Positions 3,834 to 27,477 of a stretch of 64,000 nt of DNA are shown one piece after another. Below the pieces are notes generated by a model, which was given only the letters and a program-made list of their open reading frames with translations, was not told the origin of the DNA and searched no databases. Made by a program: the position numbers and the translations under genes. Each line of letters starts with the position of its first letter. The first letter of the stretch is position 1. Source of the stretch: an uncultured Eubacteriaceae bacterium (GTDB taxonomy: Bacteria > Bacillota > Clostridia > Eubacteriales > Garciellaceae); assembly GCA_964533275.1 (NCBI GenBank), contig CAZHJK010000011.1:5572-69571 (forward strand), in the 5' to 3' direction.

Positions 3834-4988
3834 ATGATTAATAATCATGTGGCTGTAAGTAAACTGATTGACTTCTTTCAATATGTGTCAGTTGACTATG
3901 ATGATTTGCCAAAAAGAATAGTTGATGGCATCCGGTTGTATTTTGGGTACAATGCTGTTTATACTATTTATCAGAAATTAAATGAAAAAGATTACGCAAT
4001 AACTGAGTTGTACGGAGAGGATACATATTCACGGGATCATGTATTGTATAAGGAGATATGGGCGAAGAATGATATTTTTTTTAATAAATTGGATGTAATA
4101 GTTAACGGTAGCAAGACGTTGAAAAAGTATGCGTGGCGATGCCAGGATTTGGGATGTTCCATAGAAGAATTTTGGAATTTGGATCTGGGTAAGGCAATAC
4201 GTAAGGGAGGGTTTGGGTACAAAGCCCTAATTACCTGCGGTCAGCCGTGGTATAATATGCAGCATACCATCAGTTTGTATAAACCGGAAAAGCAGGGGGA
4301 TTTTTCCGATGAAGAGATGGAGAAATTTAACTATATTGGGACATTGTTTTCTATTATGCAAAATAATTATAGGGATAAAATAGAAAATGAACAGCTAAAG
4401 AGTGTATTAAATAAACATATAACCGATATGGATGGATGCTTTTGTGTCTTAAACTGTCAGCTTAATGTTATTTTTCAGACAAACGCATTTAGTGAAATTG
4501 CTGACAAAATTTTCAATGGAGAGCTTTTCAGACATACATTAATGCCGCTTGTTGCCCGAATGGGTGAGGTAGAACATTCAAACGAAAGTGAAATTAGCAA
4601 AGAGTACAATACGGAAAATGGAAACTATGTGATGAACATCTCAATTTTCAGCAAGGACAAAAATGAGAGTTATAAGACACAGTATTTATATATGATAAAG
4701 ATACAAGCGAAAAAGGATGATACTCCAAGCATGTTCAATGAAATTGATGCTATCAGAGAAGGGGCGTTCTATCTGAAGACTTCAGAGACTTATTGTCTCA
4801 CTAGGCGCGAAACAGAGGTTCTGAAGCTTATGATGAACGGTTTGAAAGTAGCGGAAATAGCTGAAAAAATTTGTGTAGCTAAAAGCACAGCCAGAACGCA
4901 CATAAACAATATATACAGGAAATTAGGTGTTAATAACCGTTCGGAGACCATGGCAAAGATTATGATGATAAAAGACACGAAAATCTAA
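3834..4988 (+). CDS. LuxR-family transcriptional regulator with an uncharacterised N-terminal sensor region
   Basis: C-terminal LuxR/GerE HTH (LTRRETEVLKLMMNGLKVAEIAEKICVAKSTARTHINNIYRKLGV). AAGGGG RBS. Confidence 0.85.
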   Translation: MINNHVAVSKLIDFFQYVSVDYDDLPKRIVDGIRLYFGYNAVYTIYQKLNEKDYAITELYGEDTYSRDHVLYKEIWAKNDIFFNKLDVIVNGSKTLKKYAWRCQDLGCSIEEFWNLDLGKAIRKGGFGYKALITCGQPWYNMQHTISLYKPEKQGDFSDEEMEKFNYIGTLFSIMQNNYRDKIENEQLKSVLNKHITDMDGCFCVLNCQLNVIFQTNAFSEIADKIFNGELFRHTLMPLVARMGEVEHSNESEISKEYNTENGNYVMNISIFSKDKNESYKTQYLYMIKIQAKKDDTPSMFNEIDAIREGAFYLKTSETYCLTRRETEVLKLMMNGLKVAEIAEKICVAKSTARTHINNIYRKLGVNNRSETMAKIMMIKDTKI

Positions 4989-15831: not shown

Positions 15832-16539
15832 ATGGAAAAGATTATGATTATAGAGGATGATCCTAAAATTGCAAAACATTTGGAAACCTATATTAATAAA
15901 TATGGATATCAAGTAAGTAAAGTAACTGATTTTGAAAATGTAATGGAAGAGTTTCATAAAAATAAACCTAATATTGTATTACTAGATATAAATCTGCCCA
16001 GCTATGATGGATTTTATTGGTGTAGACAAATTCGAAAGCAATCTACTTGTCCAGTTATATTTATCTCTGCCCGAATCGGTGAAATGGACCAGGTAAGAGC
16101 ATTAGAAAATGGGGGAGATGACTTTATTACAAAACCTTTTAATACTGAGATCGTAATGGCAAAAATACGCAGTCAGCTTCGGCGTGCTTATGGTGAATAT
16201 GCCCAGGAACACAAAGAGCGAGTATTGGATATAGAGGGACTTAAGCTTTTCCCAGAAAGATTGGAGTTAATCTTTGAGGGGGGCGAGGTATCCCTATCAA
16301 AAAAGGAAGCAGATATTATTGAAAGCTTAATGAATCGGTATCCCCGTGTTGCGGGCAGGGAAGACTTATTGGAAAAACTATGGGATGATCAAGCATATGT
16401 AGATGAAAATACACTTAATGTGAATATAACAAGGGTAAGAAAAAAGCTTCAGGCAGTGGGGATTAAAGATGCCATAGAAACTGTAAGGGGCGCTGGTTAT
16501 CGTTTGAATATCTCATGGTCAAAGGTGGAAGATAGATGA
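15832..16539 (+). CDS. OmpR-family response regulator (BceR-type)
   Basis: Receiver domain (LLDINLP) plus winged-helix output (VRGAGYRL). First gene of an RR-HK-ABC module. Confidence 0.9.
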   Translation: MEKIMIIEDDPKIAKHLETYINKYGYQVSKVTDFENVMEEFHKNKPNIVLLDINLPSYDGFYWCRQIRKQSTCPVIFISARIGEMDQVRALENGGDDFITKPFNTEIVMAKIRSQLRRAYGEYAQEHKERVLDIEGLKLFPERLELIFEGGEVSLSKKEADIIESLMNRYPRVAGREDLLEKLWDDQAYVDENTLNVNITRVRKKLQAVGIKDAIETVRGAGYRLNISWSKVEDR

Positions 16540-17537
16540 AGTTATTTATAAAGGAGCATTTATTATTAGTTGGAGTACAGATACTACAATTTTTAGTGGT
16601 TCTTTCTATTTACTGGCTTGATGGCTATCGTAATATTAAACCTGCATTCTATAGTGTTTTTCTTGGTCTCTTTTTTCTAAGTTGTTATCTTTTCTATCAA
16701 TATTATAGTCATCGTAAGTTTTATAAACGACTTAGCAATCCCCTTGAGTCCCTTGATGAATCCATCTCAAAGACTGAAAAAACAGCTATATCTGAAGCTC
16801 TTGATCTATTATTGAGAGATCAGTACAAATATTATCAAAATCAAATTAAAACATTAGAGAATACACAGGAGAAACATCTTAAGTTTATGAATCAATGGGT
16901 ACATCAGATGAAAACACCCCTATCTGTTATTGAGCTAACAGCACAAAACCTGGATGAACCGGATTCCTCTGATATACGGGAAGAAACTGAAGGAATAAAA
17001 ACTGGATTAAATACCATTCTTTATATGGCACGTCTTCAAACCTTTGAGCAGGATTTCTATGTACAACCAGTAGTTTTATCTGAGATTATAAATGAAGTAA
17101 ATAAAGAAAATAAACGCTTCTATATTCGTAACAAGGTTTATCCAAAGCTACAGGAGGAAAGGTCCAAAATCACTGTTGAGACAGATGAAAAATGGATATT
17201 TTTTATACTTTCACAATTGATTCATAATGGAGTTAAGTATTCTACTGGAAAAAGTAATAGTATCATTATTTCAATCTATGAAAAAGATGGGGAAGCTGTT
17301 TTGGAAGTGACTGATTTTGGCGTTGGAATTCCAGATTCCGATAAAAGAAGGGTGTTCAATGCTTTTTATACAGGAGAAAATGGTCGAAAGTTCAGGGAAT
17401 CAACAGGGATGGGTCTTTATTTAGCCAAAGAGGTTGTGGATCATCTTGGACATCGAATAGAATTTGATTCAGAGGTTGGGAAAGGGACAAGCTTCCGTAT
17501 TATATTTTCCTCCACCCAAAACCTTACAAGGATGTAA
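16536..17537 (+). CDS. Intramembrane-sensing histidine kinase (BceS-type)
   Basis: Two N-terminal TM helices with almost no loop, an H-box (VHQMKTPLSVI) and an HATPase (GVGIP...GMGLYLAKE). ATGA overlap with the RR gene. Confidence 0.9.
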   Translation: MKLFIKEHLLLVGVQILQFLVVLSIYWLDGYRNIKPAFYSVFLGLFFLSCYLFYQYYSHRKFYKRLSNPLESLDESISKTEKTAISEALDLLLRDQYKYYQNQIKTLENTQEKHLKFMNQWVHQMKTPLSVIELTAQNLDEPDSSDIREETEGIKTGLNTILYMARLQTFEQDFYVQPVVLSEIINEVNKENKRFYIRNKVYPKLQEERSKITVETDEKWIFFILSQLIHNGVKYSTGKSNSIIISIYEKDGEAVLEVTDFGVGIPDSDKRRVFNAFYTGENGRKFRESTGMGLYLAKEVVDHLGHRIEFDSEVGKGTSFRIIFSSTQNLTRM

Positions 17538-17626
17538 GGAAAATGAAAGAATAATCGATAGTTAAGATAGGTCGGTCAGCGGTATACTAATTACAGAGTA
17601 AAGAATAGAGAAAAGGAGATTTTATC

Positions 17627-18379
17627 ATGCTGAATGTAAAAAAAGTGAGTAAAATTTATGAAGGAAAAATGGCATACCGCGCTTTAACAGATATAGATTT
17701 AACCATTGAAACAGGAGAATTTGTAGGAATTATGGGCCCATCAGGAAGTGGGAAAACAACATTATTAAATATCATTGCAACCATTGATCAACCAACAACA
17801 GGGGAAATTTCAATCAGCGGGAATAATCCACATAGACTAAAAAGTGAAGGGTTGGCTAAATTCCGTCGCAGGGAGCTAGGCTTCGTATTTCAGGAATATA
17901 ATTTACTTCACACATTAACGGTTGAAGAGAATATCGTTCTTCCTTTGACATTAGATGGAGAAAATGTGAATGATATGAAGGAGAAAGCAAGGCAAATAGC
18001 TGAAAAACTTGGTATTACAGATATTATGAAGAAGCGCACCTTCGAAATATCCGGTGGGCAAGCACAAAGAGCAGCGATTGGAAGGGCGATGATTCATAGT
18101 CCTAAACTTTTGCTTGCTGATGAACCAACGGGAAATCTGGACTCTAAGGCATCAAAGGATGTTATGACCATGCTTGAATCCATCAATAAAAAAGAGGGTA
18201 CAACCATGATGCTAGTTACCCATGATCCCCAAGCAGCCAGCTATTGCAATAGAGTAGTCTTTATTCGTGATGGAAGGTTTTATTCAGAAATTCATAGGGG
18301 AGATAATCGTCAAGCCTTTTTCCAAAAGATTATTGATACACTTTCTTTAATGGGAGGGGATGCAAATGACCTTTCGTGA
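17627..18379 (+). CDS. ABC transporter ATP-binding protein (BceA/MacB-type)
   Basis: Walker A GPSGSGKTT, signature SGGQAQR, Walker B LLLADEPT. Confidence 0.9.
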   Translation: MLNVKKVSKIYEGKMAYRALTDIDLTIETGEFVGIMGPSGSGKTTLLNIIATIDQPTTGEISISGNNPHRLKSEGLAKFRRRELGFVFQEYNLLHTLTVEENIVLPLTLDGENVNDMKEKARQIAEKLGITDIMKKRTFEISGGQAQRAAIGRAMIHSPKLLLADEPTGNLDSKASKDVMTMLESINKKEGTTMMLVTHDPQAASYCNRVVFIRDGRFYSEIHRGDNRQAFFQKIIDTLSLMGGDANDLS

Positions 18380-20243
18380 GTTCGCCTTCCATAATGTAAC
18401 ACGAAACAAGAGATTGTATATGGCATATTTTCTAAGCAGTATGTTTACCGTATTGGTGTTTTTTACCTTTTCTATCTTTGCATTTCACCCTACATTGTCA
18501 GCGGGTTCTGATATGCATAGTAGTGTTACCCAGGGTATGAGCATTGCTGCTGGAATTATCTATGTCTTTTCCTTTTTCTTCATCCTATACTCCATGAGTT
18601 CCTTTCTGCAATCCCGCAAGAGAGAATTTGGGCTATTGATGATGCAAGGAATGTCTACCAAACAAATTCGTTCTATGATTTTTTTGGAAAATATGATTAT
18701 AGGATTTTTTGCTACAATAGGTGGTATTGGATTAGGATTGGTTTTTGCAAAGGCTATTTTGATGATTGCTGAAAATGTTTTAATTATTGAACAACAATTA
18801 AATTTTTATTTTCCTATAATAGCAATAGCATTAACTTTTGCCTCCTTTATCTTTTTATTTCTATTTATTTCAATCTTCGTTTCTTGGTTCGTACGTAGCA
18901 GTAAGCTCATTGACCTAATAAAAGCAAATAAAAAGTCCAAGGGCGAACCAAAGGCAAATATATTGTTAACCATAATTGCTACTGTTTTACTGGGGGCAGG
19001 GTATTTGGTGGCGTTAATTGTTAAGGGAATGGCTGTATTAGGAGTTATGTTACCAGTTATTATTGTTGTAACCATAGGCACCTATCTATTTTTTACTCAA
19101 TTAAGCGTATATGTAATTCACAGACTGAAGAAGAAAGAGAGTCTCTTTTGGCATAATACAAATATGATTTTGTTTTCAGATCTTTCCTTTCGCATGAAGG
19201 ATAATGCGCGAACCTTCTTCATGGTAGCCATGATTTCTACAGTGGCATTTAGTGCAATAGGAAGTCTGTTTGGATTTGGAACCTTGATCACAAAAGAAAC
19301 AAAGATAATGAACCCTAATAGCCTTACCTATAGAGCCTATGACGCTGAAGAAGTTAATGAAGAGCAAGATGTTGCGTTGATTAATGAAATGTTACGCCAG
19401 GAAAACATTGAAGCAGATACAGCACAAACTATACTCCGTTACTATCAGGTAGGAGAGGGCCCAAGTACATTAATCGCTAGTCAATCAGACTTTAATGCTT
19501 TTGCAGATCTTCTTGGAGAAGAGAACATTAGTATTAAAGAGGGAGAATTGATTGTGGTAGGATTAGAAGGATCTTCCTACGGGCAGACCGAAGAATTAAT
19601 GAACAAAGAGGTAGAGTTGAATTCAGGAGTGATATTGAAGCCAGATAAAGACATCTATTCTAGAGCCTTACCTGGAGATTCTTATTATCTTGTCTCAGAT
19701 GAGGATTATTCAAAACTTCCTGCTCCCAATTTTGAAGAAGGCTTTTATGCATGGCAGGCAACAGCAGGAGAAGAAAATGTATTTAAGGCAGTGGAGAGGT
19801 TGTATCAAGAGAACCCTATCTATGGACTTACTTCAGGTGTATATAGTCTTTATCAGACAAATAAAGGATATGGACCTACCTTGTTTGTAGGGCTATTTAT
19901 CGGAATTGTGTTTTTCGTATCTGCTGGAAGCTTCCTTTATTTCCGCCTTTATACTGATTTAGAGGAAGATAAGAGAAAATTTAAATCTATTGCAAAAATG
20001 GGTTTAACGGAAAAAGAGTTAAAGAAGGTACTAAGCAGACAAACGATCATTTTGTTCTTCGCACCCATTATTGTAGCATTGATTCATGGGGCTGTGGCAC
20101 TTACAGCATTATCCCATATGTTCAATTTTAATATGTTTAAGGAAGCAGTATTAGTTCTAAGTGTTTTCTTAGCCATACAAGTGATATATTTTTTCATAGT
20201 TAGATTTTTTTATACAAAACAGATTAGAACAGCAATAGAATAA
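18366..20243 (+). CDS. FtsX-family ABC permease with a large extracellular domain (BceB-type)
   Basis: About 620 aa and 10 TM, with a ~220-aa loop after TM7, as in peptide-antibiotic sensing/detoxification permeases. The second ATG is preferred (6 nt after GGGAGGGG). Confidence 0.85.
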   Translation: MTFREFAFHNVTRNKRLYMAYFLSSMFTVLVFFTFSIFAFHPTLSAGSDMHSSVTQGMSIAAGIIYVFSFFFILYSMSSFLQSRKREFGLLMMQGMSTKQIRSMIFLENMIIGFFATIGGIGLGLVFAKAILMIAENVLIIEQQLNFYFPIIAIALTFASFIFLFLFISIFVSWFVRSSKLIDLIKANKKSKGEPKANILLTIIATVLLGAGYLVALIVKGMAVLGVMLPVIIVVTIGTYLFFTQLSVYVIHRLKKKESLFWHNTNMILFSDLSFRMKDNARTFFMVAMISTVAFSAIGSLFGFGTLITKETKIMNPNSLTYRAYDAEEVNEEQDVALINEMLRQENIEADTAQTILRYYQVGEGPSTLIASQSDFNAFADLLGEENISIKEGELIVVGLEGSSYGQTEELMNKEVELNSGVILKPDKDIYSRALPGDSYYLVSDEDYSKLPAPNFEEGFYAWQATAGEENVFKAVERLYQENPIYGLTSGVYSLYQTNKGYGPTLFVGLFIGIVFFVSAGSFLYFRLYTDLEEDKRKFKSIAKMGLTEKELKKVLSRQTIILFFAPIIVALIHGAVALTALSHMFNFNMFKEAVLVLSVFLAIQVIYFFIVRFFYTKQIRTAIE

Positions 20244-20259
20244 ATGGTGAGAATAAAAA

Positions 20260-20297
20260 GGGATGGTGACTATTATATACCAATAGGTCACCGTCCC
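20260..20297. repeat. Inverted doublet of the REP-like element forming a hairpin between convergent genes (likely bidirectional terminator)
   Basis: gggatggtgac - 15 nt - gtcaccgtccc. Immediately followed by a perfect 14-nt tandem duplication, ccctatttgtttat x2 (20295-20322). Confidence 0.75.
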
Positions 20298-20318: not shown

Positions 20319-21038
20319 TTATCTTTGCTTTTTCTTAAGAGTAATTCCTGCTGTTACAATAGCTGCGCCAGCTAGGAAGAATAATGCAGCTGGGGTTCCA
20401 CCAGTTTGTGGTAGTTTGGCACCACCTAATGGTACATCTTCATCTTCAATGATTACTACATCCTCGTCAGGATCTTCAGCAGGTCCTAGGGGTGGATCCT
20501 CATCTTCAATAAGTAATATTTCTTCACCTGAAATTGTGAAAATCCACCTATTACTATGGCTTAATCCCATAAATTCATTTCCAGTTTCTAGTCCTGGCAA
20601 AGATGCTTCAACATTCAATTCTTGGACATCCCCTGGTTGGAATAGGCCAAGAAAAATACCATCTTCTGAGGCAAAATCTATCATTTTACCTTCATGTATA
20701 ACATCCTCTTCTAAAGTAACTTTCATTTGAATTTGCTTATATAAATCAGGTTCTTCCTCAAGTGGTTCTTCATCTAATCTTTCTGCTCTTAAATATATCT
20801 CTACTTCATTAACATAATTATTTGCAATAGTTAAATTACTGGTTATTGAATCTCCAGGTGTCATATTTAATATATTTATAAGATTTTGATCTTGGGGTAT
20901 TATTTCAAATTCTAAATCCTTACTCTCTACACTTAAATCATTTGCAAATACAGAAGTAGTAAATACCATTGAAAGAACTGCTATTAACACAAATAAGCTT
21001 AAAAATATATTTTTCTTTTTCTTTATTTTTATTATCAT
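20319..21038 (-). CDS. LPXTG (LPQTG) cell-wall-anchored protein with a TasA-like beta-sandwich-type N-domain and an acidic repeat
   Basis: Signal peptide. C-terminal LPQTGG plus a hydrophobic stretch plus KKKQR. Internal repeat IEDEDxPLGxA x2. AAGGAGGG RBS. Confidence 0.85.
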   Translation of the reverse strand: MIIKIKKKKNIFLSLFVLIAVLSMVFTTSVFANDLSVESKDLEFEIIPQDQNLINILNMTPGDSITSNLTIANNYVNEVEIYLRAERLDEEPLEEEPDLYKQIQMKVTLEEDVIHEGKMIDFASEDGIFLGLFQPGDVQELNVEASLPGLETGNEFMGLSHSNRWIFTISGEEILLIEDEDPPLGPAEDPDEDVVIIEDEDVPLGGAKLPQTGGTPAALFFLAGAAIVTAGITLKKKQR

Positions 21039-21087
21039 TTACAACCCTCCTTTATAAGGCTAAGACCTTAAGGTATTTTTTAGGGCT

Positions 21088-21660
21088 TTACCAATCTGAT
21101 GTATCTACTCCCCATTGAGTTTCTGCTGCATCATTTGTAGCTTGTATACCTTCAGCAATTACTTCAATAGAAAAGCTAGCATTTGCATAATTATTATCTA
21201 TTTCTGTACTAAAGATTAATCCATCAAGCAGTTTTGAAGTTTCCTCACCTTCTTCAAGAATTTCCTTGTAGTAATACCATCCATCTATTAATATCCAATT
21301 ATCCAAATCAAGGTCTAGCTCAACTAAATTTATGTCTAGGGGTACAAGATTTTGTCCTTCTTCTACTTCTTCTGGATCCCAGCTTGGAATTAGCTGTACT
21401 CTTACATAAGTATCTATTGAACCCTGGCTAGAAACGAAAACATTTTTATCAAATTCATCACCAGGAGTTATATTTTCGATACCTTCCTCAACAGGGAAGT
21501 CTTCTTCTCCTAATAAATCATGTAGAGTAATGGCAACATCGCCAGTTACAAAGGTATTGGTAACCTCGCCTTCATCTGTAAAGAATGCTAGAGTGGCTCC
21601 TATAATGGTAAGAGCAAATACTAAAGTTGTTGCAATTAATATCATAATATTTTTTTTCAT
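21088..21660 (-). CDS. TasA/camelysin-family protein with a SipW-dependent-type signal peptide (paralogue 3)
   Basis: N-terminus MKKN...IGATLAFFTDEGEVTNTFVTGDV matches the SipW-cognate signal class. C-terminal GIQA motif. AGGAGG RBS. Confidence 0.8.
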   Translation of the reverse strand: MKKNIMILIATTLVFALTIIGATLAFFTDEGEVTNTFVTGDVAITLHDLLGEEDFPVEEGIENITPGDEFDKNVFVSSQGSIDTYVRVQLIPSWDPEEVEEGQNLVPLDINLVELDLDLDNWILIDGWYYYKEILEEGEETSKLLDGLIFSTEIDNNYANASFSIEVIAEGIQATNDAAETQWGVDTSDW

Positions 21661-21693
21661 ATAGTTTTCTCCTCCTTTTTCTAAGTTTTTAAA

Positions 21694-21731
21694 AGCTAGG
21701 GTAGGGCGTTTAAGCCCTACACCTATGCTAG
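21694..21731 (-). terminator. Intra-operon hairpin (possible partial terminator/attenuator) after TasA-like paralogue 2
   Basis: On the minus strand: tagcataggtgtagggc ttaaac gccctaccctagc, followed by only a weak UUU tract. Confidence 0.4.
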
Positions 21732-21765
21732 AATTTTAAGACAAATGCTATTATACTTGAGACTA

Positions 21766-22365
21766 TTATGGTGCCATTAAATCATCTAATTCTGACTTAG
21801 CATCGGTAAAATCAACACCTTCTGCTTGAACTGCATATGCCATGATTTCGATATCAAATTCTTTTAAATCTTCATAGCTTACATTATCAATAGTTACATT
21901 ATCAAATAAGCTGGATGTTTCATCGCCAGCTCCTACTTCAGTTTTAAAGTAGAATACTGTATTTGAACCATCCTTTTCTTCCCAATTGCTATCAAAGATG
22001 ATACTAGCAAAGGCATCTAATTCAGCAAAGGAAGAAATATCTTTTCCATAATCTAGCTTAATAGCTACCCAAACATTATCATTACTGGTGTTTTTAACCA
22101 TTGGATCCTTTGGTATCTCACGACCTGGGAGGATATTTAATGCTAAATCCTCACCAAGAGCAACATCCTCTTCGGATACATCTTCACCATCATAATCTAA
22201 ACCATCAAATAGTGGTTCTGCAAGTGCTATAGAAATGTTATCGCCTACAGTAAAGGTATTTACTTTTTCCTCTGAAGTTGCTGTAAAGTAAGCAAAGGTA
22301 ACTCCTGCTATTAAAACTGTACTTAATATTAAAGATATCATTATCATAGTTGTTCTTTTTTTCAT
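21766..22365 (-). CDS. TasA/camelysin-family protein with a SipW-dependent-type signal peptide (paralogue 2)
   Basis: MKKRT...AGVTFAYFTATSEEKVNTFTVGD. C-terminal AVQAEG. AGGAGG RBS. Confidence 0.8.
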   Translation of the reverse strand: MKKRTTMIMISLILSTVLIAGVTFAYFTATSEEKVNTFTVGDNISIALAEPLFDGLDYDGEDVSEEDVALGEDLALNILPGREIPKDPMVKNTSNDNVWVAIKLDYGKDISSFAELDAFASIIFDSNWEEKDGSNTVFYFKTEVGAGDETSSLFDNVTIDNVSYEDLKEFDIEIMAYAVQAEGVDFTDAKSELDDLMAP

Positions 22366-22394
22366 TTTTAAAGCCTCCTAGTTTTTTATTTTGC

Positions 22395-22898
22395 CTAATG
22401 TTTAGGCTGTTTTTTTACTTTGATTTTAATTAATTCTGGAATAATGGTGATAAAAACCATTATTATTAAAATACTTCCTACTACTATGATGCCTTGTGTG
22501 GTTTTAATATAGGCTATAGCATATCCTAGGTAGGGAATACTAAATACTGCTTTTCCAACCAATCTTTCAAAGGCTACAGGACCATCCACTGCATTATTGG
22601 CATCACCCTTTGTTATAAATTGCTTTTTTGTATTATCGATACTAACTACACGATGGGTTATTAGTTTTGTGCTATTTCCTGTCATTGTGTAGGTTATAAT
22701 ATCTCCAGTGGAAATATTCTCAGGGATAGATGGTTTAACATATGTCATGCTTCCCACCTGGAGACTTGGTTCCATACTGCCACTTAGTACAACAAATGGC
22801 TTATATCCTAATAGAGAAGGACCAATCAAGGCTAGGGATACTAATATCATTAAAGTTAGAATAATTATAGTTATCTTGTTATAGAGTTTTTTAATCAT
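22395..22898 (-). CDS. sipW: Signal peptidase I, SipW (ER/archaeal) type
   Basis: SGSMEPSL (Ser), THRVV (His), plus a C-terminal TM anchor as in SipW. AAGGAGGGGG RBS. Confidence 0.85.
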   Translation of the reverse strand: MIKKLYNKITIIILTLMILVSLALIGPSLLGYKPFVVLSGSMEPSLQVGSMTYVKPSIPENISTGDIITYTMTGNSTKLITHRVVSIDNTKKQFITKGDANNAVDGPVAFERLVGKAVFSIPYLGYAIAYIKTTQGIIVVGSILIIMVFITIIPELIKIKVKKQPKH

Positions 22899-22918
22899 TT
22901 ATGTCCCCCTCCTTAGGT

Positions 22919-23533
22919 TTAAGGTTGTTCTAATTGATTTGCCAAAGCTTGTCCCCATGCATCTTCTGCTGCTCCACCTTCAGCTTGTATTGCATCTGAT
23001 AGTACTTCAAGCTGGAAGCTAGACCATAGGTCAATATCTGAAACCTCTACACTTTCAAGGAGTATAGCTGTCTTAATACCTGGCTGCACGATGTCTATGT
23101 GGTAGAAGTATCCATTGTCGAAAATCCAGTTGCTATCCCATCCGTCTATAAGATGTAATGTTATAGTGCCGTCGTCTGGAGATGTTATGGTTACTATATT
23201 GCTACTTGGGTCTAGGGACATATTACCAGCTAATGTTCCTTCATTTGTTCTAAAGGTAGGTACTAGCATAACTCGGATGTAGGCGTCTACCTCATGGGGA
23301 TTATTTACATTTAGTACTTCAACTATTTTACTTGTAACATCTTCATCAGGTGTAAGTATTTCCGTGTTATCTGAATCCTCATTATTTTCAATGATTGTTG
23401 TGGTGAGGACTCCAGGTACAAAGGAATTTACTTTCGCTTGGCTTTCAGTAGAAAGTAAGGCATAGGTTGCACCTGTCATAGCTAGGATAACAACTAATAC
23501 ATATGAAATGATTATAATAGTTTTTTTATTCAT
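22919..23533 (-). CDS. TasA/camelysin-family protein with a SipW-dependent-type signal peptide (paralogue 1)
   Basis: MNKKT...TGATYALLSTESQAKVNSF. C-terminal AIQAEG. TAATG overlap with the upstream vWA gene. Confidence 0.8.
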   Translation of the reverse strand: MNKKTIIIISYVLVVILAMTGATYALLSTESQAKVNSFVPGVLTTTIIENNEDSDNTEILTPDEDVTSKIVEVLNVNNPHEVDAYIRVMLVPTFRTNEGTLAGNMSLDPSSNIVTITSPDDGTITLHLIDGWDSNWIFDNGYFYHIDIVQPGIKTAILLESVEVSDIDLWSSFQLEVLSDAIQAEGGAAEDAWGQALANQLEQP

Positions 23534-25800
23534 TAGTTGTCACCTCCTATAAATTTGTTTATTACCCAATCAATGCTGGTAAGCCATTTTATGGGTTTTG
23601 ATTTATTTTCAAAGCTAGTCACTGCAAGATCTTTATTGATATCATGGTCACCATTTTCATCCATTCCAAGAGTATCACTAATTAGTACGGCTCCCACTGG
23701 ATCGTATTGCCATGACCAGTCTGTTTTTTCTTCTACCTCATAATATCCCTTTGGTAGATTAATAATTTCTCTAGTTTCAGTTGAACCATTAATTACTCTT
23801 ATGGTTTCGTAGAAGGTCTTTACTAGAGTTGTCTTTCCCATATCTTCGAATTGCTTAATCTCAAAGACAAAGGTCTGATTAGGATCATGCTGCCCCTCAC
23901 CATCATCAATTGTCTTTTTAATGGTCAGAGTACCTGGGATTACAATTACAGTATAGGTGCCTTCAACTATTTTTTCTGTTGCTAATGTTCCAACTGCTGG
24001 ATGATAGGTATCATCGGGATTAACTATATAATCTATTGGTGTTGCTGTGATAGTAAGATCATAATCTGTAGTATTTTCTGGTTTATCATTATCTGCGTAA
24101 TCTGGATCCCAAGTGTAATCTAGCATTCCGTTTGGATAGTCGTAGTTGACTAATTCCTCCTCTATCATTTCGCCTTGTGCTGTTGACTTACTACGAGGGA
24201 TACCTTCTCCTAGGAATATGGTATCTTCTATATCTGTAATGTTCAGCTTAAAGGGCACATTTACCAATGGATTTGGGAAGCTACCAACTTTAATTTCATC
24301 ATCTTCTTGATTTATTACATATACAGCTGAAATATTTTTAATATTAGTTGGGATATTATTGCCTCCAATAAAGTCTGGTTTAGGTTTTATATAAAGACTA
24401 CCTTGAAAAACTACTTCATCTCCTGCTCCTTCAGAAGTTTCTGGAGCAATCATCTGTGGGGGCCACTCCATATACACCCCATTAGTATCAGTTTTTAAGG
24501 TCCCGGTGTTATTACCAATAGTAAGTGTATCTCCAATATCTAACACATTTCCTTCATCATCTACAACATCAAATCTTTGATCAATATAATCTCTTACAAC
24601 TGCATTTTCTAGTGTTTCACCTAATTGCTCTGAGATTTCTCCAAAGATGTCACTTAAGCCTTGGAAGGTATCTGTAGTTTTATAATGATTTTCGCTTCCG
24701 TTTGGAAGTGGATCATTTGGTACGGGACTAAAGCCACCTGGCAACGTTCCAGGATATGGATTATTACTAGATACATTCCACATATGTGGATCTAAAGCAT
24801 TAGCCTTATCATATATTCCTATAGTATAAATGATTGTGCCATGTATACCTTTAAGGCTATCAGCAAAACCATATTCACTACTCCCATTACCCCAATTAGA
24901 ATGACCAGCTATTAGTAAGACATAGCGTGGGCGAGTGGGTGAACCTAGGGAATTGAATTTACTTAAGGCTACAGATAAACCATTATCTACAGCAACTCGA
25001 CTGCTAGGGTTAAAAGCATCTATTTCATTTTCTAAATCTGTTTTTTGAGTACCTACGGTTAACCAATCTGTAGAGGTTGTCCCACTGGGTTTAGAGTTTA
25101 TGACTACCATTTTGCTGGTAGGAGCGATTTGTGCTAAGTTATCCACAAAATCTTTAGCTGCTGTCTTTAAACCATTTTCTACAGTATTATCGCCTGAAGA
25201 CATATCCATATTGCCATTTAAACTACTAGAATTATCTAAGATTAGAACTATGTCTCCAGCTCCATCACTTGTTACAATATTAGAAGTTGCTTCTGCAGTT
25301 AGATCAATTTTAAATATTTGTCTTCCATCAGCATCTGAAGCACCAAATACACTAGCTGTTTTACTTAGTATTAAGCCGTTTTCTTCCGGGTCAACATATT
25401 CTAATGGTTCAGATGAATTAATTTGCATTATAGATTGTAAAATGGGAAAACCAAATGTTGAGTATGGTTTCCAAACCTCTTGTTCTTCTTTCTTTATTTC
25501 TTCTTCTTGAGTTTGCATGTCGGAATTTTCAATAGGAATTTCTTCATTATCTTCCTCTGGATCTTCAACAATTTCTTCTTCTGGGAGATTCTCTATAGGA
25601 GATGAATTTTCAGGTTCTTCTTCTAGATTTTCTTCCTCAGGTTCAGTTAATTGTGATGATATTTCATTTAATGGACTATCTGTTTCCTGTGCTATAGCTA
25701 CTAATGAAGAGGTTCCCAATGATATAAGTAGTAACAATGTTGTAACTATGCTAGTAATTTTTTTGTAATTTACTAATTTCTTGAACTTTCTAAATTTCAT
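23533..25800 (-). CDS. Secreted von Willebrand factor A (vWA) domain protein with an acidic linker and a C-terminal Cna-B/prealbumin-like domain (candidate tip adhesin)
   Basis: Signal/TM at the N-terminus and a Glu-rich region. MIDAS DxSxS (ILDNSSS). C-terminal GYYEVEEKTDWSWQY-type fold motif. No LPXTG. AGGAAGGTGG RBS. Confidence 0.75.
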   Translation of the reverse strand: MKFRKFKKLVNYKKITSIVTTLLLLISLGTSSLVAIAQETDSPLNEISSQLTEPEEENLEEEPENSSPIENLPEEEIVEDPEEDNEEIPIENSDMQTQEEEIKKEEQEVWKPYSTFGFPILQSIMQINSSEPLEYVDPEENGLILSKTASVFGASDADGRQIFKIDLTAEATSNIVTSDGAGDIVLILDNSSSLNGNMDMSSGDNTVENGLKTAAKDFVDNLAQIAPTSKMVVINSKPSGTTSTDWLTVGTQKTDLENEIDAFNPSSRVAVDNGLSVALSKFNSLGSPTRPRYVLLIAGHSNWGNGSSEYGFADSLKGIHGTIIYTIGIYDKANALDPHMWNVSSNNPYPGTLPGGFSPVPNDPLPNGSENHYKTTDTFQGLSDIFGEISEQLGETLENAVVRDYIDQRFDVVDDEGNVLDIGDTLTIGNNTGTLKTDTNGVYMEWPPQMIAPETSEGAGDEVVFQGSLYIKPKPDFIGGNNIPTNIKNISAVYVINQEDDEIKVGSFPNPLVNVPFKLNITDIEDTIFLGEGIPRSKSTAQGEMIEEELVNYDYPNGMLDYTWDPDYADNDKPENTTDYDLTITATPIDYIVNPDDTYHPAVGTLATEKIVEGTYTVIVIPGTLTIKKTIDDGEGQHDPNQTFVFEIKQFEDMGKTTLVKTFYETIRVINGSTETREIINLPKGYYEVEEKTDWSWQYDPVGAVLISDTLGMDENGDHDINKDLAVTSFENKSKPIKWLTSIDWVINKFIGGDN

Positions 25801-25895: not shown

Positions 25896-26000
25896 TAAAA
25901 AAGCTGCCAAATATATTTGGCAGCTGAACCGTCGTAGTATAAATACCTTAGACTTCAAACTTTGCGTCCTTATCTTTCGATAAGTTTGCCTTTATCAAAT
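25896..26000 (-). promoter_or_regulatory. c-di-GMP-I (GEMM-I) riboswitch, operon-proximal copy, with its own intrinsic terminator
   Basis: The minus strand reads AAAGGCAAACUUAUCGAAAGAUAAGGACGCAAAGUUUGAAGUCUAAGG...ACGACGGUUCAGCUGCCAAAUAUAUUUGGCAGCUUUUUU. GGCAAAC, the GAAA tetraloop hairpin, GGACGCAAAG and UCUAA match the Vc2-type consensus. Confidence 0.8.
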
Positions 26001-26088: not shown

Positions 26089-26197
26089 AAAAACCAAAAG
26101 CTGCCAAAATTAATTTGGCAGCTGAACCGTCATAGTACAAGACTTTAGACTTCGAGCTTTGCGCCCTTATCTTTCGATAAGTTTGCCTTTGTCAAAT
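26089..26197 (-). promoter_or_regulatory. c-di-GMP-I (GEMM-I) riboswitch, distal copy, with its own intrinsic terminator
   Basis: Second ~100-nt copy (GGCAAACUUAUCGAAAGAUAAGGGCGCAAAGCUCGAAGUCUAAAG...CAGCUGCCAAAUUAAUUUUGGCAGCUUUUGGUUUUUU). Differences from the proximal copy fall mostly in loops or stem positions. Confidence 0.8.
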
Positions 26198-26387
26198 AAG
26201 TAGTATTTAATTCTTACTAAATATATCTATTTACTATGCTTAGGAATATATATACACTGGAAATTTTTGTTTAAACACAATTTTTATTAGTTATTAAGTT
26301 AACAAGTTTTATTTTGGACTGACACAAATGTATGTATGTGGTAATATAATATAAATAACTCTTTGTTTCTTTATGAAAATAAAAACA

Positions 26388-26505
26388 AACTGAACAGGCG
26401 ATGGACGCTTTTGCGTTTCATAGTGGCCGGGCTATCATATGATAGCAGCAGATGATATTTACATCTGTGGGACAGAATTAATATTGTTCCATAGATGTTT
26501 TTTAT
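26388..26505 (+). promoter_or_regulatory. NiCo (czcD-motif) riboswitch with an overlapping terminator
   Basis: CUGAACAGGCGAUGGACGC...CAUAGUGGCCGGGC...GCAGCAGAUGAUAUUUACAUCUGUGGGACAG matches my recollection of the czcD motif. The terminator acatctgtgggaca / tgttccatagatgt + TTTTTT shares its 5' arm with the aptamer's 3' end. A CDF gene lies downstream. Confidence 0.7.
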
Positions 26506-26574: not shown

Positions 26575-27477
26575 ATGAAAAAAGAAAATCAACAATTTAA
26601 TAATCAGCAAATTGCAATGAGGATATCAACAGCCACTATTATTGTTAATCTAGTGCTATCAATATTAAAGTTTTTTGCGGGAATATTAGCTAATTCAGGA
26701 GCAATGATATCAGATGCAGTTCATTCAGCATCAGATGTATTCAGTACATTTATTGTAATTATAGGAGTAAATATTTCTAATAAAAAGTCAGATGAGAAGC
26801 ATCAATATGGGCATGAACGGTTAGAATGTGTTGCAGCTATTATATTAGCAATTATTTTATTAGCTACTGGAATAGGCATAGGGCTTAACGGACTGAATAA
26901 AATTTTTAATAAAAATTATGGAAAGCTTCTGATTCCAGGGCTTTTAGCATTAATTACGGCAATAGTATCTATTATTATAAAAGAATGGATGTATTGGTAT
27001 ACAAGGGCAGCTGCTAAAAGGATTAATTCTGGTGCTCTTATGGCAGATGCTTGGCACCACCGTTCTGATGCACTGTCATCAGTAGGTAGTTTTATTGGTA
27101 TTTTTGGTGCTAGACTTGGGTTTCCTATTCTTGATCCAATCGCCAGTGTTATTATATGTTTATTTATTGGTAAAGCAGCATTTGATATTTTTAAGGATTC
27201 TATAGAAAAATTAGTAGATAAATCCTGTAATGAAGAAGTTGTTAAGTTAATGAGGAAGGTAATTTTAGAGCAAGAGGGAGTACTTGGTATTGATGAAATA
27301 AAAACCAGAATGTTTGGTTCAAAAGTATATGTTGATATTGAAATTGCTGCTGATGGAAGCAAATCACTAAATGATACCCATGACATTGCAGAAGCAGTTC
27401 ATAACTCCATTGAAAAGGAGTTTTCAATGGTTAAACATTGTATGGTACATGTAAACCCTAGAGATTACAGGAAATAA
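26575..27477 (+). CDS. Cation diffusion facilitator (CDF) family divalent-metal efflux transporter
   Basis: 6 TM with metal-site motifs (SDAVHSASD, HHRSDALSS) and a C-terminal cytoplasmic domain. GGAGG RBS. Confidence 0.9.
   Translation: MKKENQQFNNQQIAMRISTATIIVNLVLSILKFFAGILANSGAMISDAVHSASDVFSTFIVIIGVNISNKKSDEKHQYGHERLECVAAIILAIILLATGIGIGLNGLNKIFNKNYGKLLIPGLLALITAIVSIIIKEWMYWYTRAAAKRINSGALMADAWHHRSDALSSVGSFIGIFGARLGFPILDPIASVIICLFIGKAAFDIFKDSIEKLVDKSCNEEVVKLMRKVILEQEGVLGIDEIKTRMFGSKVYVDIEIAADGSKSLNDTHDIAEAVHNSIEKEFSMVKHCMVHVNPRDYRK

Follow-up and report, generated by a model that had tools for sequence, protein, structure and literature searches.

The DNA analysed here, hereafter the window, is a stretch of 64,000 nt from an uncultured Eubacteriaceae bacterium (NCBI GenBank assembly GCA_964533275.1, contig CAZHJK010000011.1, positions 5,572 to 69,571 of the forward strand). 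Between window positions 20319 and 25800, six minus-strand open reading frames (ORFs) make up an operon whose products point to an adhesive fibre of the TasA/BsaA type on the cell surface. They comprise an adhesin with a von Willebrand factor A (vWA) domain, three TasA-like subunits referred to as T1, T2 and T3, a SipW-type signal peptidase and a protein with an LPQTG sorting signal, referred to as the anchor. In gene order, these are:

23533–25800, minus strand: vWA/CnaB adhesin gene (755 amino acids)
22919–23533, minus strand: T1 gene, TasA/BsaA-like subunit of class 1 (204 amino acids)
22395–22898, minus strand: SipW gene, signal peptidase I of the SipW type, i.e. the archaeal/endoplasmic reticulum type (167 amino acids)
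21766–22365, minus strand: T2 gene, TasA/BsaA-like subunit of class 2 (199 amino acids)
21088–21660, minus strand: T3 gene, BsaA-family subunit (190 amino acids)
20319–21038, minus strand: gene of the anchor, the LPQTG protein (239 amino acids)

The same six tightly packed genes had been recognized, at identical positions, in an earlier annotation (the first-pass annotation). The stop codon of the vWA gene and the start codon of T1 overlap in the sequence TAATG, and the remaining spacers, in gene order after T1, measure 20, 29, 105 and 49 nt. The regulatory elements of the locus are the following:

26114–26197, minus strand: cyclic di-GMP (c-di-GMP)-I aptamer 1 (distal), RF01051, full-length (model positions 1–87), 75.0 bits with a gathering threshold of 35
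26099–26123, minus strand: intrinsic terminator of riboswitch 1, from the terminator scan; the 3' end of the aptamer doubles as its 5' arm, AGCUGCCAAAU
25916–26000, minus strand: c-di-GMP-I aptamer 2 (proximal), RF01051, full-length (model positions 1–87), 79.8 bits with a gathering threshold of 35
25902–25925, minus strand: intrinsic terminator of riboswitch 2, from the terminator scan; same overlap with the aptamer, 5' arm AGCUGCCAAAU
21701–21720, minus strand: GC-rich stem-loop in the 105-nt spacer between T2 and T3, from the terminator scan and folding
20255–20297, minus strand: terminator-like hairpin (GGGACGGTGAC...GTCACCATCCC followed by TTTTT), read from the sequence, between the anchor gene and a convergent ABC-permease gene

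With riboswitches upstream and a terminator-like hairpin following the last gene, the six genes thus represent one unit extending from riboswitch to terminator. The hairpin at 20255–20297 is missing from the output of the terminator scan because its loop is longer than the limit of the scan. The locus is present in identical form on 16 contigs from several metagenome samples and is therefore not an assembly artefact.

Word-indexed protein searches returned only 5, 8 and 11 relatives. Profiling of the six-gene order, as proposed in the first-pass annotation, showed that the succession vWA-T1-SipW-T2-T3-anchor recurs, with 1:1 orthologues for each paralogue class, in a JGI contig (L005), in three Eubacteriaceae metagenome-assembled genomes (L006–L008), in Alkalibaculum sporogenes (L010) and on the contigs L015/L020 and L019. 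Its recurrence in independent genomes shows that this order did not arise by chance. T1 orthologues adjoin the vWA gene in every related cassette. At five loci (L005–L008 and L010) the anchor gene is immediately succeeded by a gene for a sortase. The encoded sortases score 52–58 bits on TIGR01076 (cutoff 39.35) and are closest to class C, but reach 56–63 bits on the class C model, the cutoff of which is 160. The window and its closest relatives, L015/L020 and L021, are devoid of this gene. In more distant cassettes (Christensenellales, Senegalia and others), SipW and T-type genes are paired with an anchor homologue bearing a sorting signal. The seven-gene synteny including a dedicated sortase strongly ties the cassette to what would be sortase-mediated anchoring. 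In A. sporogenes (L010, 9288–9865 and 14827–15993), three tandem c-di-GMP-I riboswitches precede a cassette in which one more T-type gene and another SipW gene are present. A stem-loop occupies the T2–T3 spacer, in the same place and with unrelated sequences, also in L015/L019, L007 and L008 (L015 9885–10000; L007 14077–14211; L008 14064–14190; z-scores of -1.6 to -6.4). It may act as a partial terminator or as a stabiliser of mRNA 3' ends, thereby setting subunit or transcript ratios; in Clostridium perfringens, a terminator after bsaA sets transcript ratios (PMC7395162).

The signal peptidase scores 106.5 bits on TIGR02228 (cutoff 51.85), in agreement with its initial designation as SipW. 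On NF046067, the equivalog model of the Bacillus SipW, it scores 95.3 bits and stays below the cutoff of 190. Judged by these models, it is therefore a SipW-type enzyme and not an orthologue of the Bacillus protein. Among the putative subunits, T3 exceeds the cutoffs of the BsaA-family model TIGR04090 (63.2 bits versus 60) and of PF12389, the TasA/camelysin family (Peptidase_M73; 31.6 bits versus 22.5). T2 and the anchor remain below the threshold of 22.5 on PF12389 (20.4 and 16.0 bits, respectively) and the scan of T1 with this model gave no match. On TIGR04090, T1 and T2 reach 25.5 and 25.6 bits, respectively, versus the cutoff of 60. Comparison by hhalign links T1 and T2 to the T3 family with probabilities of 99.8% and 99.9%, respectively, and alignments reveal [IV]QA motifs in all three proteins. 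The model for SipW-type signal peptides, TIGR04088, recognizes T2 (33.1 bits) and T3 (25.7 bits; cutoff 19). The proposal of three TasA-like paralogues with SipW-class signal peptides is thus borne out by homology and motifs, and for T2 and T3 also by the signal peptide model, whereas T1 and T2 fall outside the BsaA family as delimited by TIGR04090. When compared with PDB entries, the profile of the T3 family finds TasA (8aur and 5of1) as best matches, at weak E-values of 0.02–0.03; the matched segments comprise the donor-strand, PGD and C-terminal regions. In the JGI annotation, T3 is named 'predicted ribosomally synthesized peptide with SipW-like signal peptide', which for a 190-residue BsaA-family protein looks like a misleading automatic label.

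The historical name of the family, camelysin, and the matches to PF12389 could also be taken to mean that the T paralogues are metalloproteases of the peptidase M73 type without a structural role, an outcome that the first-pass annotation itself had named as fatal to its proposal. However, an HExxH motif is present in none of the six proteins, the M73 label is held to be a misidentification (PMC11580942), and the relatives with solved structures, TasA and AbpA, are fibre subunits. In view of the missing motif, we reject the protease reading, which we consider exceedingly improbable.

How the subunits may assemble is suggested by BsaA of C. perfringens. BsaA polymerises by insertion of residues 28–38 into the next monomer, with V33 and F37 entering its core, and N35 forms an isopeptide bond with K74 that is catalysed by E56; mutagenesis supports both donor insertion and the lock (PMC11580942). 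T3 exceeds the cutoff of the BsaA-family model and, like BsaA, carries the donor motif V-x-N-x-F at the same positions (V33, N35 and F37) and has an invariant Lys (K72, as compared to K74 of BsaA). The comparison is based on TIGR04090 and on the residue numbers in PMC11580942, and the vWA protein is likened to BsaC by description. Alignments show N36, E49 and K69 to be invariant in T1, and N36, E50 and K86 in T2. Asn and Lys are invariant across all three classes, whereas the Bacillus TasA has Ala at the Asn site. The V, N, F and K positions shared with BsaA suggest that the T subunits polymerise by donor-strand exchange, possibly locked by an isopeptide bond.

The anchor consists of a Sec signal peptide, a TasA-like jellyroll body (residues 34–171), an acidic linker with a doubled IIEDEDxPLG motif, the LPQTG sequence, a transmembrane segment and the basic tail KKKQR. 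It scores 22.7 bits on the sorting-signal model TIGR01167 (cutoff 15.9), which agrees with the succession of LPQTG, a hydrophobic span of 20 residues and KKKQR. The core of residues 34–171 is modelled by AlphaFold2 with a predicted local distance difference test (pLDDT) score of ~90. A Foldseek search places TasA first (5of1; E 1.2e-3, probability 1.00), with AbpA of archaea (7ueg) in fourth position. Moreover, hhalign relates the anchor to the T3 family with 83% probability. Comparison of the anchor profile with PDB sequences gave no meaningful match, and the fold assignment thus rests on Foldseek and hhalign. The body has no model of its own among the Pfam and NCBIfam matches. The last gene product, originally described as a sortase substrate with a TasA-like body, retains this description. 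Despite its TasA-like fold, it is devoid of a donor motif. Within residues 173–213, the sequence IIEDEDPPLGP is followed after ~10 residues by IIEDEDVPLGGAKLPQTGG; this doubled acidic motif is conserved across the family and scores 36.4 bits on NF033073 ('doubled motif LPXTG anchor'), below the cutoff of 48.

An exhaustive profile search with the anchor family yielded 2,235 cluster representatives at E<=1e-3, among them 510 at E<=1e-10. Clear sorting signals were recognized in 127 of the top 150 representatives. Sortase-anchored TasA-like proteins are therefore common, as far as sorting signals allow them to be recognized, and they are usually encoded beside SipW. The first-pass view that the operon combines two normally separate assembly systems cannot be maintained in light of these numbers. 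Its statement that no sortase is encoded nearby proved correct: neither a scan for the TLxTC motif nor phmmer searches with the relatives' cassette sortase detected one in the 64-kb window, and none is present in the 10 kb past its high-coordinate end. Its suggestion of tethering by a housekeeping sortase departs from the family default, which is a cassette-encoded sortase, found at the five loci mentioned above. The window's clade lost the dedicated cassette sortase while its sorting signal stayed intact.

This loss could mean that the cassette is no longer wall-anchored, with the C-terminal helix keeping the LPQTG protein in the membrane, so that the fibre would be membrane-tethered or the cassette decaying. 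The vacancy in the window and the adjoining 10 kb speaks for this possibility, as does the position of a dedicated sortase straight after the anchor gene in five relatives; moreover, the polymers of C. perfringens strain 13 are membrane-anchored and not wall-anchored (PMC11580942). However, the 16 contigs carry all six ORFs in intact form and without any difference. In addition, P210, T212 and G213 (the P-x-T-G core), the hydrophobic span and the basic tail are invariant in the sortase-less lineages (the window, L015/L020 and L021) down to 51–54% anchor identity. Retention of the sorting signal at such divergence argues for processing by a sortase presumably encoded elsewhere in the genome rather than for decay, and we regard a membrane-tethered or decaying cassette as improbable. 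The sorting signals themselves differ between the two groups: in a small sample, LPKTG is found where a sortase is adjacent versus [LI]PQTGG in the sortase-less window, L015/L020 and L021, which may reflect a switch of sortase specificity.

The product of the first gene starts with a Sec signal peptide and an acidic disordered spacer (residues ~40–130), followed by an immunoglobulin (Ig)-flanked vWA domain (~133–510), a middle region, a C-terminal CnaB-like domain (~623–735) and a tail of the form W-L...V-x-N-x-F; an LPXTG motif is not present in this protein. The DxSxS signature of the metal ion-dependent adhesion site (MIDAS) is invariant in the alignment (D189, S191 and S193). Orthologues score 44–70 bits on the Pfam VWA models, above the thresholds, and the Senegalia homologue reaches 51.8 bits on the GBS104-like tip-pilin Ig model (cutoff 26). 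A Foldseek search with the AlphaFold2 model returned the pilus tip adhesins SpaC (E 2e-16), PitA and Mfa5 as top matches. The model is usable for residues 133–510; residues 512–755 are unusable because the alignment comprised only 5 sequences. The initial description as a tip-adhesin-like protein is thus sustained by the invariant DxSxS and the fold match, whereas for the window protein the MIDAS is incomplete and the Pfam match sub-threshold, as detailed below. As to the Cna-B-like C-terminal domain, likewise noted at first pass, a Lys/Glu/Asn pattern typical of CnaB is invariant in 10 diverged homologues, and the best PDB match of the profile is the CnaB-type region of PitA, at a weak E-value of 0.013. 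As AlphaFold2 confidence is poor for this part of the protein, its assignment as CnaB-like is plausible but weakly supported.

The tail of the vWA protein is conserved: W-L is followed after 6–9 residues by V-x-N-x-F, which repeats the core of the donor strand. An N-x-F sequence is found within the last 30 residues in 9 of 12 tip-position proteins versus 8.4% of 287 control ORFs. However, on an 11-residue position-specific scoring matrix (PSSM) derived from 30 T donor strands, control ORFs score about as high as the vWA tails. With these mixed results, the idea that the tail mimics a donor strand and attaches the adhesin to the tip can be regarded only as a lead. The vWA protein of Senegalia massiliensis (L018) contains an internal donor-strand-like sequence, VKVNTFIVSTK, at residue 175, with a PSSM score of 14.7, above all 150 control ORFs.

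Upstream of the operon, aptamer 2 is a near-duplicate of aptamer 1. The terminator hairpin of riboswitch 1 has a folding energy of -15.4 kcal/mol and forms in competition with the pairs that close the aptamer. In both units, the minimum-energy fold of the ligand-free RNA is the terminator (~-15 kcal/mol), and in the aptamer-only fold the same bases close the aptamer. As the 5' arm of the terminator corresponds to the 3' end of the aptamer, ligand binding should prevent termination, which would make both riboswitches ON switches. The overlap of aptamer and terminator is kept in L015 and L019, where a compensatory A-U to G-C change has occurred in the terminator stem. Further c-di-GMP-I riboswitches precede related cassettes, namely three in tandem in A. 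sporogenes (L010) and one each at L015, L019 and L018. An Rfam scan of L005–L008 gave no match; riboswitch control is thus not universal in the family. In S. massiliensis (L018, 9894–9971), a c-di-GMP-I riboswitch is located inside the cassette, between SipW and a single T3-like gene. At L021, a c-di-GMP-II and a c-di-GMP-I riboswitch are arranged in tandem (4569–4653 and 4882–4970) upstream of a related cassette that starts with a gene for a protein of 656 amino acids with a Cna_B match and no vWA domain. A full-text search of the literature found no paper tying a c-di-GMP riboswitch to SipW. Tandem c-di-GMP-I units have been studied in Bacillus thuringiensis, where they precede a surface-protein operon and provide a more stringent, digital response (PMC4759541).

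Taken together, we propose that the six genes encode an adhesive fibre on the cell surface which belongs to the TasA/BsaA type (SipW-dependent and assembled by donor-strand exchange), is tied to the wall and is made only when c-di-GMP is high. We assign this reading a probability of about 0.55. Binding of c-di-GMP would hold the 3' strand of the aptamer, which is the 5' arm of the terminator, and thereby permit read-through; since both riboswitch units would need ligand, the response should be sharper. In T1, T2 and T3, cleavage by SipW would bare an N-terminal donor strand with the motif V-x-N-x-F, which may then enter the beta-sandwich of the next subunit, as in TasA and BsaA, possibly followed by locking through an Asn-Lys isopeptide bond, as in BsaA. 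The LPQTG protein, which has the fold and no donor motif, could accept the last donor strand and thus end the fibre at the cell, where a sortase encoded elsewhere in the genome would join it to peptidoglycan. The vWA adhesin would reside at the distal end, possibly attached via its C-terminal V-x-N-x-F tail, and T1 may serve as adaptor between adhesin and shaft because the vWA and T1 genes are tightly coupled in every cassette.

Several observations weigh against this proposal. The ON direction of the riboswitches is deduced from sequence logic; the c-di-GMP control claimed in the first-pass annotation is thus backed by two high-scoring aptamers as regards the ligand and less firmly as regards the direction. 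Tip and base positions, the stoichiometry suggested at first pass, the isopeptide lock and the wall linkage are likewise inferred, and in T3 the catalytic acid of the isopeptide bond could not be assigned to one of its two candidates, D48 and E59. As mentioned, T1 and T2 do not reach the cutoff of the BsaA-family model. In the vWA protein of the window, the distal MIDAS Asp is not kept (AGH versus TDG in the Alkalibaculum orthologue), and the scores stay below threshold on both PF00092 (17.7 bits versus 23.8) and PF13519 (18.2 bits versus 27). Its tail does not rank first on the donor-strand PSSM, which is the case only in L015 and L019. A TasA-like pilin domain within the vWA protein was considered and rejected (hhalign probability 8%). 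No sortase is encoded within the ~74 kb of DNA scanned, and, as outlined above, polymers of C. perfringens strain 13 are attached to the membrane. Finally, BsaC was recovered as a free secreted monomer in C. perfringens, and BsaB, which forms monomers and dimers only, was not incorporated into BsaA polymers (PMC11580942).

The latter findings, together with the lack of a TasA-like domain in the vWA protein, its ordinary Sec signal peptide and the negative PSSM result for its tail, are also accounted for if the operon represents one regulon rather than one polar fibre. In this case, the T proteins would polymerise into a matrix like BsaA, the vWA protein would be secreted separately as an adhesin for matrix or host like BsaC, and the LPQTG protein would be a wall-bound nucleator or tether analogous to TapA, with no defined base. 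However, the TAATG overlap and the fact that T1 adjoins the vWA gene in every cassette are not readily explained in this way, nor is the enrichment of N-x-F in the tails of tip-position proteins. The preservation of three paralogue classes as 1:1 orthologues suggests distinct structural roles, and donor-strand complexes between an LPXTG anchor and an AbpX subunit have been predicted by AlphaFold 3 for Clostridium amylolyticum (10.64898/2026.01.04.697558). We consider the looser arrangement of matrix polymer, separate adhesin and wall tether a serious rival of the wall-tied fibre, albeit one that we would not bet on. The proposal of a wall-tied adhesive fibre can also be taken further, namely to a third kind of Gram-positive pilus, in which SipW-processed TasA-fold subunits would be joined by donor-strand exchange and an Asn-Lys lock, capped by a vWA/CnaB protein through its own C-terminal donor strand, based on a donor-less TasA-fold protein that is sortase-linked to peptidoglycan, and controlled by c-di-GMP riboswitches. 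In this complete form, the idea is tentative and rather unlikely to hold in every part.

Among known systems, the bsa operon of C. perfringens combines similar components. It has the order sipW-bsaA-bsaB-bsaC, with BsaC as vWA protein; srtB is adjacent, and in most strains an LPXTG-bearing BsaB-like gene is present, with wall anchoring being 'speculative' in the authors' own word (PMC11580942). Both loci thus encode SipW, TasA-like paralogues, of which one carries LPXTG, and a vWA protein, and the bsa neighbourhood has a sortase. The window operon differs in that the vWA gene comes first instead of last, three conserved paralogue classes are accompanied by a separate anchor, tandem c-di-GMP riboswitches take the place of the two-component system BsaRS, and a sortase gene is not adjacent. 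With tapA-sipW-tasA of Bacillus subtilis and calY/tasA of Bacillus cereus, the operon shares SipW-processed TasA-fold subunits, which in Bacillus undergo N-terminal donor-strand exchange and are tethered or nucleated by an accessory protein. However, the Bacillus systems are without vWA protein, LPXTG and sortase, while the window operon is without a TapA homologue. The role of TapA in Bacillus is debated.

The first gene product resembles components of sortase pili (SpaCBA of Lactobacillus rhamnosus GG, PitA of Streptococcus oralis PI-2, RrgA and GBS104) in having a vWA domain set into Ig-like domains and a CnaB-type K/E/N triad, and a subunit with LPXTG, here recognized by its sequence, is available for wall attachment. 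Unlike in sortase pili, LPXTG is restricted to the last gene product and is lacking in the adhesin and T1–T3, there is neither pilin-motif chemistry nor a class C sortase, and the shaft candidates are TasA-fold proteins that depend on SipW. As the shaft candidates and the adhesin are devoid of LPXTG and a class C sortase is not encoded, the locus is, by its predicted products, not a sortase pilus. Archaeal Tafi/ABP and bacterial AbpX have the concept in common with the proposed fibre, namely a polar structure joined by donor strands in which a tip and minor subunits are combined with an anchor at the surface and a signal peptidase I dedicated to the system. For archaeal Tafi loci, a tip protein and a membrane anchor have been proposed, and a 2026 preprint describes TasA-superfamily AbpX loci in which tip and minor subunits are predicted alongside LPXTG or S-layer homology (SLH) anchors, sortases and c-di-GMP enzymes (10.64898/2026.01.04.697558). 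In contrast to the window operon, these systems belong to other subfamilies, their signal peptidases are 10-transmembrane proteins or Tat-linked, their tips are not of the vWA/CnaB type, and no riboswitch control has been reported for them. Regarding control, the closest likeness is to Bc3-5 of B. thuringiensis, where complete riboswitch units in series precede cspABCDE and control is stringent and digital. The latter operon encodes cell-surface proteins with wall-anchoring motifs, and a signal peptidase, sortase, LPXTG or camelysin is not mentioned (PMC4759541).

The first-pass annotation knew of no characterised fibre of the TasA type in which a vWA tip is combined with an LPXTG base. This is still literally true; the combination is known at the gene level, however, from the bsa operon (PMC11580942) and the AbpX preprint (10.64898/2026.01.04.697558). 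What is new here is the conservation of a seven-gene cassette of the Eubacteriaceae type that contains three specialised classes of paralogues, a clade that lost the dedicated sortase, and recurrent, often tandem control by c-di-GMP riboswitches; the donor-like tail of the adhesin may be added as a lead. The cassette family, with its three subunit classes, adhesin, anchor and, usually, own sortase, provides a compact natural test case for the attachment of TasA-type fibres to cells and for the presence of dedicated adhesins on them. A. sporogenes, which has been cultured, possesses all seven genes together with three riboswitches. In addition, c-di-GMP riboswitches emerge as a recurrent input to SipW/TasA-type operons.

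The operon is flanked by two further units. On the upstream side, a NiCo (nickel/cobalt) riboswitch (26380–26477, plus strand; 58.3 bits with a gathering threshold of 37) precedes a cation-diffusion-facilitator gene (26575–27477, plus strand). This unit is divergent from the fibre operon and has the intergenic region in common with the c-di-GMP leader. On the downstream side, genes for a response regulator, a histidine kinase, an ABC ATPase and an FtsX-type permease (15832–20243, plus strand), Bce-like by gene content, are convergent with the fibre operon and occupy the spot where relatives have the sortase gene.

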